Source of the DNA: Candidatus Kuenenia stuttgartensis
GTDB lineage: Bacteria > Planctomycetota > Brocadiia > Brocadiales > Brocadiaceae
Assembly (NCBI RefSeq): GCF_900232105.1
Contig: NZ_LT934425.1
Span: 1,650,001 to 1,682,000, forward strand
Length of the DNA stretch: 32,000 nt
Direction of reading: 5' to 3'
Of the stretch, positions 17,393 to 32,000 are shown piece after piece. A model generated the notes under the pieces. That model was not told the origin of the DNA, searched no databases, and was given only the letters and a program-made list of their open reading frames with translations. The position numbers and the translations under genes are program-made. Numbering within the stretch: the stretch's first letter is position 1; each line of letters starts with the position of its first letter.

Positions 17393-17775
17393 AGAAAACC
17401 CCCTTATTCTGCATTTATTCTAAAACCCATTTGATGTTATATAAATATAAAATGATACATCTACCAGAGAAATATAGAGAAATATTAATGAATATCGCCC
17501 AATTACCCTTCTCCACGAAACGAAAAATGCGGCGAGGGTTATGCTAGCAAAATATAAAACAAGTTTCAAGTAAATTTGTCATTAAAATTTGGATGTCTGT
17601 TTTCATAATGATGTTGCTAACTAATCGAATTTCATATTGACTTTTCAGTTGTATGGCTATAAATTGAATTCTTATATCGGTTAGGGTACAACATCTTGCG
17701 TTTACAATGAAATATTCATGCTCGAATTATAAGGCTTTTCCAACGTTCCACATCAAATTCAATCGGGTGTAATTT

Positions 17776-26183: not shown

Positions 26184-27075
26184 TTATGCCCTTGGATGGT
26201 TTTATCATACACCTGTTTCAGGCGCTCCGTGGTTACATGGTGTAAATTTGTGTTGTAGAGAGGCTGCTGTGCCCTAAAAATTCCTGTACCGCCCGCAAGT
26301 CTGCGCCGTTATCCAGCAGATGGGTGGCAAAGCTGTGCCGGAAAGTGTGCGAGAAACGCGAAGATGCATGGCGGCTTTTTTCATGTACTTTTCGATCATT
26401 CTTGCAACACTACGTTCTGTAAGACGTCCGTGAAATTTATTTAAAAACAACGCCTCGTATCCGCCTTTCTTTTCTCCAATACAATTGTATTGCATTTAAA
26501 GCGTGATTTCCAACCGGGAGTATGCGTTCTTTACTTCCCTTGCCACGCACCTTTACTATCCCGCTGTGAAAATCTATGTCCGCAATATTAATTCCCACGA
26601 GTTCGCTAACCCGCATACCTGTGCTGTAAAAGGTTTCCATGATTGCTTTATCACGCAAGCCTGATAAATTGCAAGTGTCTGGCTGATTCAGGAGTATCTC
26701 TGTGTCGTTAACACTCATAAAACCGGGAAGTTTTTTATCTGTCTTCGGAGTCTTAATCTGTTCGACCGGATTATATTCTAAAATTCCGTGTTGACATAAA
26801 AATTTGTACAGAGAACGTATGGAGGCCAGTTTTCTTGCTACAGTAGTTTTGGAAGGATTCTTTTTTTTTAAAAAGCAAAGATACTTCCGTAATTGCAGGC
26901 GGGGAACACCGGCAAGGTCTGTACACCCCTCGCCTTTAAGAAATGAAAGATATTGGCCAAGATCGTTTCGGTAAGCCCGCAGTGTTTGCGGCGAATAGTT
27001 CCTGTCATTCTCAATATAGGCAAGATATCTGTCGATAAATCTTTGTATGTTATCGTTTGATGGCAACATTTTCAT
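26184..27075 (-). pseudogene. xerC: XerC/XerD-type tyrosine recombinase, frameshifted (as sequenced)
   Basis: The N-terminal 212 aa are intact (SAM-like domain ...YSPQTLRAYRNDLGQYLSFL, then LRDKAIMETFYSTGMRVSELVGI, RGKGSKERILPV). The C-terminal catalytic blocks [38 protein letters not shown] appear only after shifting frame (own translation). I cannot separate XerC from XerD. Confidence 0.85.
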
Positions 27076-27288: not shown

Positions 27289-28711
27289 TGAAGTTGGATA
27301 CATGCGTTACTGGCAAAGTTACTGCCTTTGAGGTGAAGGAGGCATGCGCTCCTCTGGAAGCGTTTTGCCGGTTTTTAAAAAACCCAAATGTTTTCTTCCT
27401 GACAGCGCATTGCCAACGGTGAGATTTCAAGGTATTCCTTCCTTGGTTTTAGCCCGTTTTAACAATAAAAACGAAACACCAAAAATACTTATAAAAGACA
27501 AAGATGGAAGTCAGGAGTGCGAGGGAAGTCCATTTGAATATCTTCGAAAAATATTGAACCGGTATTCTTTGGGAAATATCAGTAATTCCCTGCCTTTTCA
27601 GGGTGGGGCTGTAGGATATTTTGGGTATGACCTCTGTCATTACATAGAGAAATTGCCCAAAACTCTGTGGGTGACCTTGAATTGCCTGATATATATATGG
27701 GGTTTTACGATATTATTATCTCCTATGATAATCTTCTTGAAAAGTTCTTTGTGGTAGTAATTGACTTTGGCATGGATAATACATTGAATGACAGGATAGG
27801 GCAGATAACGGAAGTATTGTGCGGAAAATCTGAAGAGCCTGGAGAAGTGTTAATGACCGGATACGACAGGGTTGTTGCTACGGAATTAAGGTCTAACTTT
27901 ACGAAAGACTCCTATATGAAAGCCCTCCGGCAAATAAAAAAGTATATTTCGGCGGGAGATGTGTATCAGGTAAACTTATCACAAAGGATTGAGGCGCGTT
28001 AAGACATGCCTGCGTATGAATTATTACAAAAGATTGCGCAAAATCAACCTGCTCCGTTTGCATGTTATCTTGGCTTTGATGACGTTCTATAATCAGCTCT
28101 TCTCCGAAAGATTTCTTCGTGTTTGTAATCGTCAGGTACAAACACGCCCGATAAAAGGCACACGGCCAAGAGGTAAGAACGCATTGGAAGATGAAGAGAT
28201 GAAACAGGCCTTGCTGTCCAGCCAAAAAGACAATGCGGAGCTACCATGATAACAACCTTGAACGTAATGATCTCGGACGGGTCTGCAATTATGGTCTATT
28301 AAGGTCATAGAAGAAAAAGCGTTGGAAAACATATCCTACTGTTCATCATCTGGTATCAACGGTAATAGGAGAATTGCACGAGAGATACGACAATAATAGA
28401 CCTGCTCAGGGCGACTTTTCCCGGGGATCTATTACCGGAGCCCCTAAGATCCGCGCCATGCAAATTATTGATGAACTTGAACCATACCAGAGAAGTGTAT
28501 ATACAGGCTCTATAGGGTATATTGGGTTTATGGAAATTTAGACCTGAATATTGCAATACGTACCTTTATTATGAAAGGAGAAACAGTGTATTTCCAGGTT
28601 GGCAGCGGCATTGTTGCAGACTCTGACGCAGAAGATGAATATGAAGAAACATTGCACAAGGCCAAAGCCTTGATTGAATCACTTAACCCATGCCTGACGC
28701 TATCTTCTTAA
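27289..28711 (+). pseudogene. pabB: aminodeoxychorismate synthase component I, frameshifted (as sequenced)
   Basis: Recognisable blocks are MKLDTCVTGKVTAFEV...NVFFL(D)SALPT, FQGGAVGYFGYDL, ISAGDVYQVNLSQR and TRPIKGTRPRG (the PIKGT lysine is PabB-type; TrpE has PIAGT). GAPKIRAMQIIDELE and FQVGSGIVADSDAEDEYEET are also present. There are at least 5 frame changes and the end is approximate. Confidence 0.8.
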
Positions 28712-29520
28712 ACGATACAATAGTTGATGCGACGAAAGGTGTTCTCAGCACCTTTGACCGGGGTTTCTTTACGGTGATGGCCTCTTCGAGACCATTCGGG
28801 CGTATAATAAAAACCCCTTTAAACTGGAAGAGCACATAGCCCGCCTTTCAGATTCGGCGCAATTTCTTTGCATACCTTTCCGATACACCTGCGATCAAAT
28901 AAGGCATATTATCGGTCAGCTTCTTGCAAAAAATCATTTATCCGACAGTATATACGCTTAACACTCTCCCGCGGTTATAATGCCAATGGATTTATCCCCG
29001 TGCGCGAGACCAACCCTACTTTTGTAATTCATACAAAACACTTGGTCCCTTATCCGGCACTATGTATAAAACAGGGTTAAAAACTCATTGTTTCACAGAC
29101 ACGAAAAAATGCCAGTTGTCCTATTTCAAGGCATAAAACACTCAATTATTTAACACATTATCTCATCAGGAAAGAGGCATGGAAGCGGGGGCGCATGACG
29201 CACTGATTTTAACCACAGAAGGCAACGTGGCGGATGTTCCGTCAGCAATGTTTTTGTGTGGAAAGACCAGCGCAGTCTTTACCCTCAACTAATGCAAATA
29301 TTTTGCCGGGCATTACCAGGCGGGTTGTTATTGATTTATGCAAGGAAACCGGCATTCAGTGACAGAAAAACTCTTTGATCTCCATGAAATAGCCACGGCA
29401 GATGAAGTCTTTATTACAAACTCTCTTATGGAGATCATGCCTGTTTCATCAATAAACGGAAATGTCTTCGGAGATGCTCTTCCCGGGGAAATTACCGGAA
29501 TACTCTCGGCGAAAATATAA
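28690..29520 (+). pseudogene. pabC: class IV aminotransferase-fold protein, probably aminodeoxychorismate lyase, frameshifted (as sequenced)
   Basis: The start ATG overlaps the pabB end. Recognisable blocks are MPDAIFLNDTIVDATKGVLSTFDRGFF.GDGLFETIRAYN, NILPGITRRVVIDLCKETGI and LFDLHEIATADEVFITNSLMEIMPVSSING. There are several frame changes; the last lies near 29358. Confidence 0.7.
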
Positions 29521-29736: not shown

Positions 29737-29783
29737 TTTCAATATATTGTATAACACCGAAAACACAATACAATGTATTGTGT
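29737..29783. promoter_or_regulatory. tandem NrdR-box-like palindromes
   Basis: Box 1, TTTCAATATATTGTAT (29737-29752), matches 12/16 of the consensus acaCwAtATaTwGtgt with a perfect CAATATATTG core. Box 2, ATACAATGTATTGTGT (29768-29783), matches 14/16. Box 2 lies inside a perfect 15+1+15 palindrome, CGAAAACACAATACA-A-TGTATTGTGTTTTCG (29758-29788). Centre-to-centre spacing is 31 bp. Confidence 0.5.
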
Positions 29784-29789
29784 TTTCGC

Positions 29790-29818
29790 TTGACAATGCC
29801 TTTTTTTTTGGTACAAAT
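29790..29818 (+). promoter_or_regulatory. sigma70-like promoter for the 30035 gene
   Basis: TTGACA (29790-29795) is followed by a 16/17-nt spacer and TACAAAT (29812-29818). It lies immediately downstream of NrdR-like box 2. Confidence 0.4.
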
Positions 29819-30034
29819 ATCCTTCTATCTGTCTGTGTACTGCACGCAGAAAGATTCAGTATGCTATTGAAGAGGGTTTTATCGTATTTTTATTTCAGGA
29901 ATCTTCAAATGAGAGGAGGTGTAGCGGGCAAAATAAGAAATTTGTTATTTTGGGGGAGGGGGAATAAGTGAGTTTAAATGTATGGTATGATTGGAAAACG
30001 ACAATTCTGGCTATGAACAAAGAAAGAGGGATAA

Positions 30035-30427
30035 ATGACAACAGCAGTATTAGAAATACCTGAAGCAAAGCATGTTATATGCGATGGAGAAGAGGTACAA
30101 TTAATAATAGAAGAAAAACTGAGTGCTTTTGATAAGGCGATTGAGCAGCATGACTTCCTGGAAATAGATGGCGACATAGAAGGCGATTCACCGGAAGAAC
30201 ATTCGATAAAGATTATCAACCACAGGGCAGAATGTGCATATTCAATCAGTATCGATGCGGTTATCAGACAAGATTTGGGCTATGTAATAGATTCACTCGA
30301 AACAGGAAATACCACGCGCCTTTACGGAATAACAAGAATTGTGGGGTATTACAGCCGTGTATCCAATTGGAATAAATCCAAAATCAGTGAATTACACGAC
30401 AGGCATACGGGAAGTTATTCTGTATAA
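30035..30427 (+). CDS. stand-alone NrdD-type glycyl-radical domain protein (130 aa)
   Basis: The C-terminus LYGITRIVGYYSRVSNWNKSKISELHDRH matches the class III RNR glycyl-radical block (R-[IV]-x-G-Y-Y ... WN.GK..E...R). The N-terminal 70 aa or so are acidic and unassigned. A GAGGG Shine-Dalgarno sequence lies 4 nt upstream. Confidence 0.7.
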   Translation: MTTAVLEIPEAKHVICDGEEVQLIIEEKLSAFDKAIEQHDFLEIDGDIEGDSPEEHSIKIINHRAECAYSISIDAVIRQDLGYVIDSLETGNTTRLYGITRIVGYYSRVSNWNKSKISELHDRHTGSYSV

Positions 30428-30614: not shown

Positions 30615-31070
30615 TCAAACAACGTTGGCGGATGGACGAATTCTTACCGTAAGCACGGGGCATGGCGCCTTGCGTACAACCTTTTCCGCCACACTTCCCA
30701 TCATAACATGGGCGAGGCCGCTCCTGCCGTGAGTACCAATTACAATGATATCCATCTCCAGCTTTTCGCCCTTATTGACAATTTCGTTAAAAGGTATCCC
30801 CTTTTCAACAATTGTTTCCACTTCTAACAAATCGGTAGTGCCCTCCGGAAGACTTTTTAACAGATCGGCGTGAATTTTTGACATCGTTGCCTCATCAAGG
30901 TTGTACGGACTAAATTTGTATATTTCCGTATCATATGCACGGGTATCGATTACATGCATAATATACAACTTTGCTTCATCTTTTAATGCCAGAGAAACCG
31001 CATATTTTAAAGCAAGGTAAGAACATTCGGAATGATCTATAGGACATAATATATTTTTGAACTTTATCAT
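30615..31070 (-). CDS. universal stress protein (UspA family)
   Basis: I place the start at ATG 31070 (MIKFKNILCPIDHSE..., AGGAGA upstream) rather than the track start at 31148. The C-terminal block is VIGTHGRSGLAHVMMGSVAEKVVRKAPCPVLTV. Confidence 0.85.
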   Translation of the reverse strand: MIKFKNILCPIDHSECSYLALKYAVSLALKDEAKLYIMHVIDTRAYDTEIYKFSPYNLDEATMSKIHADLLKSLPEGTTDLLEVETIVEKGIPFNEIVNKGEKLEMDIIVIGTHGRSGLAHVMMGSVAEKVVRKAPCPVLTVRIRPSANVV

Positions 31071-31197
31071 ACACTCTCCTGTTCTGTTTGAAAAAAAGAA
31101 GCAACACAAAAAATGAGTAACATTTTCACAAAATGATGTATCATTCACTATTTAAGGCATATACCGTATTACCTTCAGGGACTTTTTGCGTAAAACA

Positions 31198-32000
31198 TCA
31201 CATGCCAATACCGTCAATAACTGCACCACATTTCGAACACTTTGAATTGGTAATATTATTTTCAAGGATTTGGTAGCCATATCTTTTGATGAGCATTTTA
31301 TTGCATTGATAACAATACGTATTTTCTCCCCCTTCGCCGGGGACATTGCCTTCGTAAACGTAACGCAGTCCCGCCTCCAAACCAATCGTACGCGCTCTTC
31401 TCAATGTTTCAACAGGAGTAGGCGGTGTATCGGGCAACCGGCATCTTGGATAAAAGCGACTAACATGCCAGGGGATTTCAGGTCCTACACTCCTGATAAA
31501 TCCGGCAATCTGTTTTAATTCCGAGTCGGAGTCATTAATTCCGGGAATGATAAGGGTGGTTATTTCTATCCAGATGCCCAATTCTTTATAAGCACGAATA
31601 CAATTCAGCACGGGTTCAAGTCTTGCCCCGCAAATCCTCTTATACGTTTCGTCGGAAAAACTTTTCAAATCGATATTTGCCGCATGAAGACAGGGTTGTA
31701 TAGTTGACAAAGCCTCATACGTCGTGTATCCATTCGTTACGAACACGTTCATAATTGACCTTGAAGAGGCCAATTGTGCAATTTCATACGCATATTCAAA
31801 AAAAATAGTGGGCTCTGTATAGGTGTAGGCAATGCTTTTACAGTTATACTCCAGGGCGTCTTCAACAATCTTTTCCGGCGGCACCTCTTTGCCGGGTATC
31901 GTGTCTGAATCTTTGGGGAGTTGTGATATTTCATAATTTTGGCAATTAAGACATCTGAAGTTACACCCCGCCGTTGCTACAGAGTAAGAAGTTGACCCAG
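31198..32000 (-). CDS. amrS: radical SAM enzyme of the PflA/NrdG activase family, AmmeMemoRadiSam-type (5' end beyond the right window edge)
   Basis: The reading frame stays open upstream of the track start. Own translation of 31921-32000 gives GSTSYSVATAGCNFRCLNCQNYEISQ (the CxxxCxxC cluster). This is followed by AYTYTEPTIFFEYA, VTNGY, NIDLKSF, EITTLIIPGIND, PWHVSRFYP, YVYEGNV and a C-terminal CYQC...CSKCG. Confidence 0.85.
   Translation of the reverse strand, partial: GSTSYSVATAGCNFRCLNCQNYEISQLPKDSDTIPGKEVPPEKIVEDALEYNCKSIAYTYTEPTIFFEYAYEIAQLASSRSIMNVFVTNGYTTYEALSTIQPCLHAANIDLKSFSDETYKRICGARLEPVLNCIRAYKELGIWIEITTLIIPGINDSDSELKQIAGFIRSVGPEIPWHVSRFYPRCRLPDTPPTPVETLRRARTIGLEAGLRYVYEGNVPGEGGENTYCYQCNKMLIKRYGYQILENNITNSKCSKCGAVIDGIGM

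Follow-up and report, generated by a model that had tools for sequence, protein, structure and literature searches.

Oxygen destroys glycyl radical enzymes by cleavage at the radical glycine, damage for which no remedy is known other than GrcA/YfiD, a spare part for pyruvate formate-lyase (PFL) (2026 review; 2021 YfiD paper). The review of June 2026 states that spare parts are known only for formate-lyases, the 2021 YfiD paper makes the same statement, and spare parts for other glycyl radical enzymes are listed in both as an open question of the field. A phage counterpart of GrcA is known in Y06I of T4. Here we describe a short gene of the anammox bacterium Kuenenia stuttgartiensis, located in a 32,000-nucleotide stretch of contig NZ_LT934425.1 (positions 1,650,001 to 1,682,000; hereafter, the window), which encodes a protein of 130 amino acids (aa) ending in a glycyl-radical segment of the type found in NrdD, the anaerobic (class III) ribonucleotide reductase (RNR). 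The original prediction, made from the letters of the window, was of an autonomous radical-domain protein of the NrdD lineage. Our analysis supports it: the placement of the profile match, the possible descent from a disrupted nrdD and the prior characterization of the family were each assessed, and none of them spoke against it. Its functional guess gains support because predicted NrdR boxes precede the gene, because homologues complete naturally split NrdD proteins, and because phages carry copies. The reading that we favor, with a probability of roughly 0.55, is that the module would be activated by NrdG and would, as a separate polypeptide, provide NrdD with a glycyl radical, in the way that GrcA serves PFL.

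The short gene and its NrdD-type glycyl-radical tail

The product of the open reading frame (ORF) is identical to KsCSTR_06960 (UniProt Q1PZP4), a K. stuttgartiensis protein annotated as hypothetical, and it ends in ...TTRLYGITRIVGYYSRVSNWNKSKISELHDRHTGSYSV (the same end is also given as ...LYGITRIVGYYSRVSNWNKSKISELHDRHTGSYSV). The 130 codons, the good Shine-Dalgarno sequence (GAGGG) ahead of an ATG and the quoted C-terminus are all as first described (Table 1), and an AAGGAG/AGAGGG element is kept 5' of the ATG in 13 aligned leaders of related loci. The NrdD-class motif R-[IV]-x-G-Y followed by WN.[GS]K..EL.DR is present as RIVGYYSRVSNWNKSKISELHDRH. Pfam NRDD (PF13597) matched residues 91–124 at positions 528–560 of 562 (E 1.5e-5, 24.3 bits), and TIGR02487 matched residues 95–124 at positions 550–579 of 581 (E 6e-5, 21.7 bits vs. 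a cut-off of 326). The models that matched the protein were of the NrdD type only, and only their extreme C-terminal ends were matched, with neither the ten-stranded alpha/beta barrel and its catalytic cysteine finger loop nor a whole-protein score above the curated cut-off. A profile-profile comparison of 29 short-form relatives with 12 full-length NrdDs gave an E-value of 1.2e-19. Aligned to the Prevotella copri NrdD (PDB 8p23), the short protein has the G of its RIVGYY opposite that of RITGY, which is the radical Gly711 followed by the conserved Tyr712 (8p23 paper). The predicted NrdD-type glycine block, the local and significant match at the NrdD C-terminus with G104 on the radical glycine, and the lack of a barrel are thus all borne out.

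An alignment of 29 diverse family members shows no variation at R101, V103, G104, W112, S115, K116, E119, R123, G126, and Y128. Over its last 35 residues the protein is identical to the Kuenenia NrdD at 27 positions (77%), the radical glycine included; nucleotide identity over the same stretch is 78%, and different codons are used at 10 of the 27 identical residues. With so many synonymous differences, the short gene is therefore not a recent copy of nrdD, and a recent gene conversion from nrdD is ruled out by the same two values. The Kuenenia protein and the Kuenenia NrdD both have Ser in the segment KSKISEL, at a position occupied by Gly in all other Brocadiales short forms and in all of the ~90 non-Kuenenia NrdDs listed. 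The four-cysteine zinc site that precedes the glycine loop in NrdD (CNDC...CGYC at the aligned place in the Kuenenia enzyme) is absent from the short protein, which has two cysteines, C16 and C67, and no CxxC pair, as had been noted. The 130-aa protein is very probably a glycyl-radical-domain homologue with a functional glycine.

The family is widespread and conserved over its full length. A word-indexed search with the 130-aa protein gave 205 matches at E ≤ 0.001; among the 120 of them that were listed, nearly all were of 113–147 aa, and the Brocadiales named as sources were Kuenenia, Brocadia, Jettenia, Loosdrechtia, and Wujingus. When 1.84 billion cluster representatives were searched exhaustively with HMMER, 449 clusters matched at E ≤ 0.001; almost all measure 55–241 aa, and many align over residues 20–130, so that the N-terminal domain belongs to the family. 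A scan of one genome per species identified 41 Brocadiales loci with the short gene, each with an intact ORF of 125–134 aa from the first ATG. Nei-Gojobori dN/dS between orthologues was 0.06–0.12 overall, 0.07–0.15 for the N-terminal part and 0.01–0.07 for the tail. The 514 nt 5' of the gene are non-coding and contain a promoter, and no NrdD-like coding was found by tblastn in the whole 32-kb window, in agreement with the earlier remark that none was seen upstream. We conclude that the short gene is almost certainly real and selected.

These data also bear on descent from a broken nrdD, which had been named as one of the outcomes that would undo the prediction. A 3' remnant of a disrupted nrdD is ruled out by full-length conservation (125–137 aa in the 41 Brocadiales loci and in ~200 protein clusters), by a dN/dS of ~0.1 reflecting purifying selection on both halves, by the gene's own promoter and by an intact nrdD elsewhere in the genome. 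The broader view that the gene is a non-functional relic, either a 3' piece of nrdD in decay or a gene acquired from a phage and without a function in the host, is the least likely of the alternatives considered here, and we regard it as highly improbable: the closest relatives outside the Brocadiales do sit on temperate-phage-like contigs and the window assembly does hold several broken genes, but the intact ORF encodes the very same protein as the reference, keeps its full length throughout the order with a dN/dS of ~0.1 in both halves, and is preceded by a conserved promoter with an operator.

The broken genes of the window are pabB/pabC, in at least six ORF fragments (27344–29520), dnaE, in at least three fragments (17776 to ~21000), and a shortened integrase of 212 aa (26437–27075). 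The reference sequence CP049055.1 has intact PabB (478 aa), PabC (283 aa) and integrase (296 aa). The window assembly thus probably carries indel errors, by which the 130-aa ORF is unaffected.

Neither Pfam nor NCBIfam nor PHROGs names the family. We found no prior characterization of it, its members being called hypothetical by the sources, and no paper for the locus tag, the UniProt accession, or Kuenenia in combination with NrdD. Likewise, no characterized NrdD counterpart of GrcA was found, in line with the statement of the original prediction that none was known to it.

The 130-aa protein has a mass of 14.7 kDa and consists of an acidic part (residues 1–92, isoelectric point 4.2) and a basic tail (residues 93–130, isoelectric point 10.0). 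An AlphaFold2 model built on a 29-member alignment contains a confident small alpha/beta domain at residues 18–90 (mean predicted local distance difference test [pLDDT] of ~87–94 per 10-residue block across residues 21–90), with predicted helices at 18–38, 73–78, and 81–90 and strands at 42–48, 57–62, and 67–72. The glycine loop is modelled at low confidence, as expected because the segment would be buried in a partner, and is followed by a helix at 109–125. This domain is homologous throughout the short family, including the phage and Elusimicrobia-type members described below. Profile searches and a Foldseek comparison of the model with PDB and BFVD found no relatives of the domain in Pfam, PHROG, PDB or BFVD, in keeping with the acidic, unassignable N-terminal half of the original prediction. 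Alignment by hhalign placed residues 31–92 colinear with residues 688–760 of NrdD at low column confidence, as it might if the domain derived from the last barrel elements; by our reading, only two of five secondary-structure elements agree with the barrel end, in a comparison for which the full-length NrdD model is poor (pLDDT 61). A match to a DnaB intein (E 1.5) was treated as noise, and kinship with inteins or helicases was rejected. An antisense ORF of 81 aa (29974–30219, minus strand) overlaps the 5' half of the short gene and recurs in related loci (cluster c10); we do not count it as a gene because this recurrence only reflects the conserved sense strand.

The enzyme that the module would serve is encoded in the same genomes. 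In K. stuttgartiensis CP049055.1, ~71 kb separate the short gene from an intact nrdR-nrdD-nrdG operon, and the search for full-length nrdD and nrdG suggested with the original prediction thus located both. The operon encodes NrdR (TIGR00244, 192.5 bits), an NrdD of 812 aa with an ATP-cone, an NRDD domain, zinc cysteines and its own glycine loop, and NrdG (TIGR02495, 183 bits). The same operon is found in Brocadia, Jettenia, and Scalindua genomes, and the short and long forms occur together in Brocadia, in Jettenia, and in one lake metagenome-assembled genome (MAG); in the MAG VGXX01, the short form is at locus L033 and the long form at L048.

Promoter and predicted NrdR operator

The NrdR site has been described as two partially palindromic 16-bp boxes with a linker of 15–16 bp and conserved positions C4, A6, A8, T9, T11, and G13 (PMC13584703). 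A pair of 16-bp boxes with these features was found at 29737–29783, upstream of the short gene. Box A has a matrix score of 18.0, the highest in the window. Box B starts 31 bp after box A (a 15-bp linker), ends 6 nt before the -35 hexamer, and scores 13.5, although it was absent from the training set. A search of the window with a tandem IUPAC pattern gave one match, where none was expected from 100 shuffles. Of the 36 related Brocadiales loci scanned, 23 have a box at the position equivalent to box A, and 16 yielded both boxes, always with a start-to-start spacing of 31 bp (16/16); the window is not among these 16 loci, as its box B falls outside the detection pattern. Examples from the aligned upstream regions are AATCAACATATTGTAT and ATACAAAATATTGTGT, and a third box usually follows ~67 bp further downstream in the related loci.

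The position matrix was trained on the boxes of the short gene only and then applied to RNR operons outside the training set. At the nrdR-nrdD locus of Scalindua (L143), the nrdR promoter contains, at a distance of 32 bp from each other, the sites ranked first and third by the matrix (16.3 and 10.5), and the nrdR promoter at L048 has a comparable pair with the same 32-bp spacing; no such 32-bp pair occurred in 1000 Markov-simulated sequences. The nrdR promoters of Jettenia, Brocadia, and Kuenenia have weaker boxes at the same position. The genome combines an NrdR with paired boxes at the short gene that resemble those at RNR operons of the clade. A free-standing homologue in a non-anammox Planctomycetota MAG, situated among housekeeping genes, has a box with all six conserved positions 138 nt upstream, one of the two at that locus. 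Given the tandem boxes and the matrix matches at the nrdR-nrdD promoters, ribonucleotide reduction and the short gene are most probably under common control via the predicted NrdR operator.

The boxes precede a sigma-70-type promoter. TTGAC is present at the same place in 36 of 36 aligned upstream regions, and the full hexamer TTGACA in 35, the remaining one (L038) having TTGACT; other genera have TATAAT-like -10 elements. A simple consensus promoter scan made no call at the window promoter because its -10 element lacks T at position 6, and the promoter was inferred from cross-species conservation rather than from the scan.

Two further elements were observed. A lone NrdR-like box, GTACAACATCTTGCGT, with the third-best matrix score in the window, lies at 17686–17701, ~75 nt 5' of the dnaE start; it may be due to chance, or the NrdR regulon may reach a replication gene. 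A GGAGGTG element at ~29885–29905 of the window (GAGAGGAGGTGTAG), with equivalents in loci L001–L030, is kept in 10 of 13 aligned leaders, and the remaining three differ from it at one or two bases. It is situated ~130–190 nt 5' of the start codon, well apart from the actual ribosome-binding site, and neither a consistent upstream ORF after it nor an Rfam match was found. Rfam likewise found no riboswitch or known RNA in the 5' leader as a whole.

Homologues in split reductases and phages, and the neighboring genes

The survey of short-form homologues and their gene neighborhoods that had been proposed found Brocadiales, Elusimicrobia-type and phage members. In four Elusimicrobia-type contigs (L042, L043, L045, and L053), nrdD has no glycine loop and ends a few residues past the zinc ribbon. 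At the three complete loci (L042, L043, and L053), NrdD (~783 aa) aligns over its full length with the Kuenenia NrdD and nrdG is upstream; L045 covers just the last 166 codons of nrdD. The gene order is nrdG (where the contig extends that far), nrdD, short gene. The cysteine-pair segment reads ACCRL in L042 and L043 and has the variant CC[RK]L in L053, and the zinc ribbon is present. After 19–129 nt, the split nrdD is followed on its 3' side by a gene with its own ribosome-binding site for a homologue of 101–106 aa, which supplies ...DGITRIVGYFSKTSNWNKSKIGEL.DRR.GNY. This small subunit is 40% identical to the anammox protein over residues 35–130, with a homologous N-terminal domain. Since the large subunit has no glycine loop, the Elusimicrobia-type homologue must therefore be catalytically competent. 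As far as the gene sequences tell, a module homologous to the anammox protein is supplied to NrdD from a separate gene in nature. In a related Elusimicrobia genome, NrdD and the module are fused (L044). We came across no account of a split class III RNR in the literature, where only the split class II enzyme NrdJa/NrdJb is described. The last residues of the large subunits are ...CEC in L042 and L053, and those of all four small subunits form a Cys motif (GNC, GHC, GDC, and NCC).

The split architecture suggests another possibility for Kuenenia, namely that a second NrdD-like enzyme, without the glycine, is encoded at another place in the genome and has the short protein as its obligate radical subunit; the short protein would then be part of a split enzyme rather than a spare part. 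Such an arrangement with homologous short proteins exists in other phyla. The sole Kuenenia NrdD recovered, however, is full length with its own loop (the genome was not scanned whole), and the anammox gene does not lie directly 3' of a loop-less nrdD: no truncated NrdD was found near it in the 41 Brocadiales loci, and no NrdD of any kind within 10 kb in Kuenenia or in these loci. We consider a second enzyme very unlikely.

Free-standing homologues of 84–225 aa were found in ~65 of 80 IMG/VR loci, nearly all without NrdD or NrdG within 8 kb. These phage genes adjoin terminase, portal and capsid/major head genes in varied contexts, and the three closest non-Brocadiales relatives with context examined are all on temperate-phage-like contigs. 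No PHROG family covers the short forms, and tblastn found no match in 50,697 GenBank phage records. A glutaredoxin-like gene (L147:7398–7616) lies ~300 nt 3' of the close homologue P0132 on a temperate-phage-like contig, a pair that hints at a small phage module for anaerobic deoxynucleoside triphosphate (dNTP) synthesis. Another split was observed in phages, in which a stand-alone mini-protein of 46–60 aa contains CxxCGS..., the glycine loop and the tail (L085, L125, L130, and L137); in L137 its gene is located between a truncated nrdD and nrdG.

Taken together, the tail, the operator and the split homologues make it very likely, in our estimation, that the short protein is functionally tied to class III RNR. 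A tie of this kind could also be inhibitory: as a regulator or decoy, the protein would compete with NrdD for NrdG or cap the NrdD barrel, and so tune or delay dNTP synthesis or buffer radicals. The NrdR boxes and the mimicry of the tail fit this equally well, as neither separates activation from inhibition; paralogue-specific residues of the tail could mean a non-catalytic role, and host-takeover inhibitors are also carried by phages. A mere binder, however, needs neither an invariant radical glycine with its surrounding motif nor a tail dN/dS of 0.01–0.07, the Elusimicrobia-type homologue must be catalytically competent where the large subunit has no loop, and phages generally profit from more dNTPs, not fewer. 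An inhibitory role thus appears unlikely, though less so than the other alternatives.

On its 3' side, the short gene converges with a gene for a universal stress protein (Usp), beyond which lies a gene for the radical S-adenosylmethionine (SAM) enzyme of the AmmeMemoRadiSam system (Table 1). That system (AMMECR1/Memo/radical SAM) is widespread and has eukaryotic relatives. The order short gene, Usp, TIGR04337 radical SAM gene is found in ~30 Brocadiaceae loci. In the Scalindua-like Brocadiales loci L035 and L037–L040, a TIGR04336 Memo-type gene is nearby, directly after a SLOG gene in L037–L040; the L036 contig stops before the position of the Memo gene. In a Planctomycetota MAG (L052; 7643–12531) and an unclassified bacterial MAG (L047), TIGR04337 follows nrdD-(trx)-nrdG, and in L052 it overlaps nrdG by 4 bp. 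The window enzyme matches many glycyl-radical activase models. The short protein itself matches none of the component models TIGR04335, TIGR04336 and TIGR04337, which are matched only by its neighbors.

This neighborhood raises the possibility that the short protein is a partner or substrate of the PflA-like radical SAM enzyme, which might activate the zinc-less module as a dedicated activase or might serve non-RNR chemistry. The protein would then be the physiological glycyl-radical substrate of the system, whose role would be to install or repair protein glycyl radicals and to serve anaerobic RNR in Planctomycetota. The gene order in Brocadiaceae, the Memo-type gene in five Scalindua-like loci, the position of TIGR04337 after nrdD-(trx)-nrdG in two MAGs and the scores of the enzyme against activase models all favor a partnership. 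Yet the two genes are convergent and not co-transcribed, no tandem NrdR operator was found upstream of the radical SAM gene in 23 loci (isolated boxes with six of six positions in five, none paired at 31–32 bp), and tblastn found no TIGR04337 neighbor at the phage and Elusimicrobia-type loci, apart from a weak 44-bit cross-match on the nrdG of L134. Synteny within a single order is weak evidence, and the AmmeMemoRadiSam system is far wider spread than the short family. Both the partnership and the substrate role deduced from it therefore seem improbable to us, slightly more so than an inhibitory function.

Table 1. Coordinates of the short gene, its parts and control elements, and the genes around it (window numbering), and of the split nrdD loci (contig numbering).
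Feature	Position	Strand	Details
Coding sequence of the 130-aa protein	30035..30427	+	ATG start; stop codon included
Shine-Dalgarno sequence GAGGG	30026–30030	+	Read from the sequence; 4 nt 5' of the ATG
Acidic N-terminal alpha/beta domain, residues 18–90	30086..30304	+	AlphaFold2 model and family homology
NrdD-type glycyl-radical segment, residues 93–130	30311..30424	+	27/35 identity to own NrdD
G104 codon GGG	30344–30346	+	Aligned to the radical glycine of NrdD
Predicted NrdR box A (TTTCAATATATTGTAT)	29737..29752	+	6/6 conserved positions C4 A6 A8 T9 T11 G13
Predicted NrdR box B (ATACAATGTATTGTGT)	29768..29783	+	5/6 conserved positions; middle dinucleotide GT, not AT
Sigma-70-type promoter	29790..29817	+	-35 TTGACA 29790–29795; 16-nt spacer; weak -10 TACAAA 29812–29817
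Universal stress protein gene	30615..31073	-	Pfam Usp E 2e-34; 151 aa in reference; convergent with short gene; functional link uncertain
AmmeMemoRadiSam-system radical SAM enzyme gene (PflA-like)	31198..32000, beyond window end	-	TIGR04337 269 bits vs. cut-off 220; functional link uncertain
Split nrdD and short gene	L042:6751–9439; L043:3594–6323; L053:5763–8555; L045:3–843

Proposed mechanism and comparison with known systems

In the mechanism that we propose, the tandem NrdR operator would allow the short gene to be repressed and released together with nrdR-nrdD-nrdG by the ATP/dATP state of the cell. NrdG would then abstract a hydrogen from G104 to create a glycyl radical on the small protein, and this would dock on an NrdD barrel that lacks its own radical domain or has it out of place, most obviously in an NrdD cut by oxygen at its radical glycine, and would insert its glycine loop beside the catalytic cysteine. 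Ribonucleotide reduction could thereby resume without a new 812-residue enzyme having to be made. Indirect support for such a rescue comes from the naturally split NrdD systems. The phage copies would presumably keep the anaerobic dNTP supply of the host going. The NrdD radical domain was found experimentally to be highly mobile and to move as a rigid body (8p23 paper), and a cartridge on a separate polypeptide fits this observed mobility. Supply of the radical to NrdD from a separate polypeptide, taken by itself, seems to us somewhat more likely than not; that its purpose would be specifically repair after oxygen damage is a more tentative proposal, to which we give somewhat less than even odds.

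Several observations count against the proposed mechanism. The Pfam NRDD score (24.3 bits) is below the gathering score of 26.2. The tail has paralogue-specific residues (GYYSRVSNW...ELHDRH in the short protein vs. GYFSRINNW...ELADRH in NrdD), and the short family is an old separate lineage that could have diverged in function. The shared Ser/Gly variation of the Kuenenia short protein and NrdD represents one evolutionary event and is merely suggestive of a link between them. At the level of control, the boxes of the Kuenenia nrdR promoter score poorly with the matrix (5.0), and the -10 element of the window promoter is weak. The conserved AmmeMemoRadiSam neighbors point to a possible other partner. 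Recognition by NrdG may require the zinc ribbon, which is absent from the short protein, and an oxygen-cleaved NrdD would keep its zinc ribbon and half of its loop, which bears on the steric compatibility of docking.

The short gene offers a concrete, cloneable candidate for anaerobic RNR, the maker of DNA precursors in strict and facultative anaerobes, and the two-gene Elusimicrobia-type NrdD is a natural positive control. If the proposal is correct, the radical domain of class III RNR would be an exchangeable cartridge, the NrdR regulon would gain a new member, and a widespread, unannotated phage auxiliary gene aimed at the dNTP supply of the host would be identified. It would also help to explain how oxygen-sensitive anammox bacteria regrow after oxygen pulses in wastewater reactors.

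Among known systems, the NrdR regulon, which comprises the nrdAB, nrdHIEF, nrdDG, and nrdJ operons, has the same tandem 16-bp boxes with a 15–16-bp linker over the promoter; unlike its members, the short gene encodes no recognized RNR subunit, activase or redoxin. NrdJa/NrdJb of Pseudomonas aeruginosa resembles the Elusimicrobia-type enzyme in that an RNR chain is divided between two genes with a C-terminal functional element made separately, but it belongs to class II and depends on adenosylcobalamin. The C-terminal domain of NrdD (residues 676–739 in P. copri, PDB 8p23; also T4 NrdD) shares with the short protein the glycine loop, the Tyr after the radical Gly and the helix that follows; the short protein differs in being free-standing, in having no four-cysteine zinc site, and in an N-terminal domain that is either unrelated or diverged past recognition.

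The closest likeness is to GrcA/YfiD. Both proteins are of similar size (14.7 kDa here and 14.3 kDa for YfiD), both consist of an N-terminal part and a copy of the C-terminal glycyl-radical segment of a parent enzyme, and both have phage counterparts (Y06I for GrcA, the IMG/VR homologues here). In both cases the full-length enzyme and its activase are encoded in the same genome (here NrdD and NrdG, ~71 kb away), and by analogy the short protein presumably acts from a separate polypeptide, too. The differences concern the parent enzyme, which is class III RNR here and PFL there, and the sequence: neither PF01228 nor the GrcA model matches the short protein at E ≤ 10, and its motif is RIVGYY...WNKSK..EL.DR, not that of the PFL type. 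For its N-terminal part, a folded alpha/beta domain is predicted, whereas that of YfiD is disordered (2026 review). The short protein is the best candidate to date for a spare-part radical protein outside the PFL family, and what would be new is that the concept of an autonomous glycyl radical cofactor extends to another class of enzyme and to a sequence family unrelated to GrcA.

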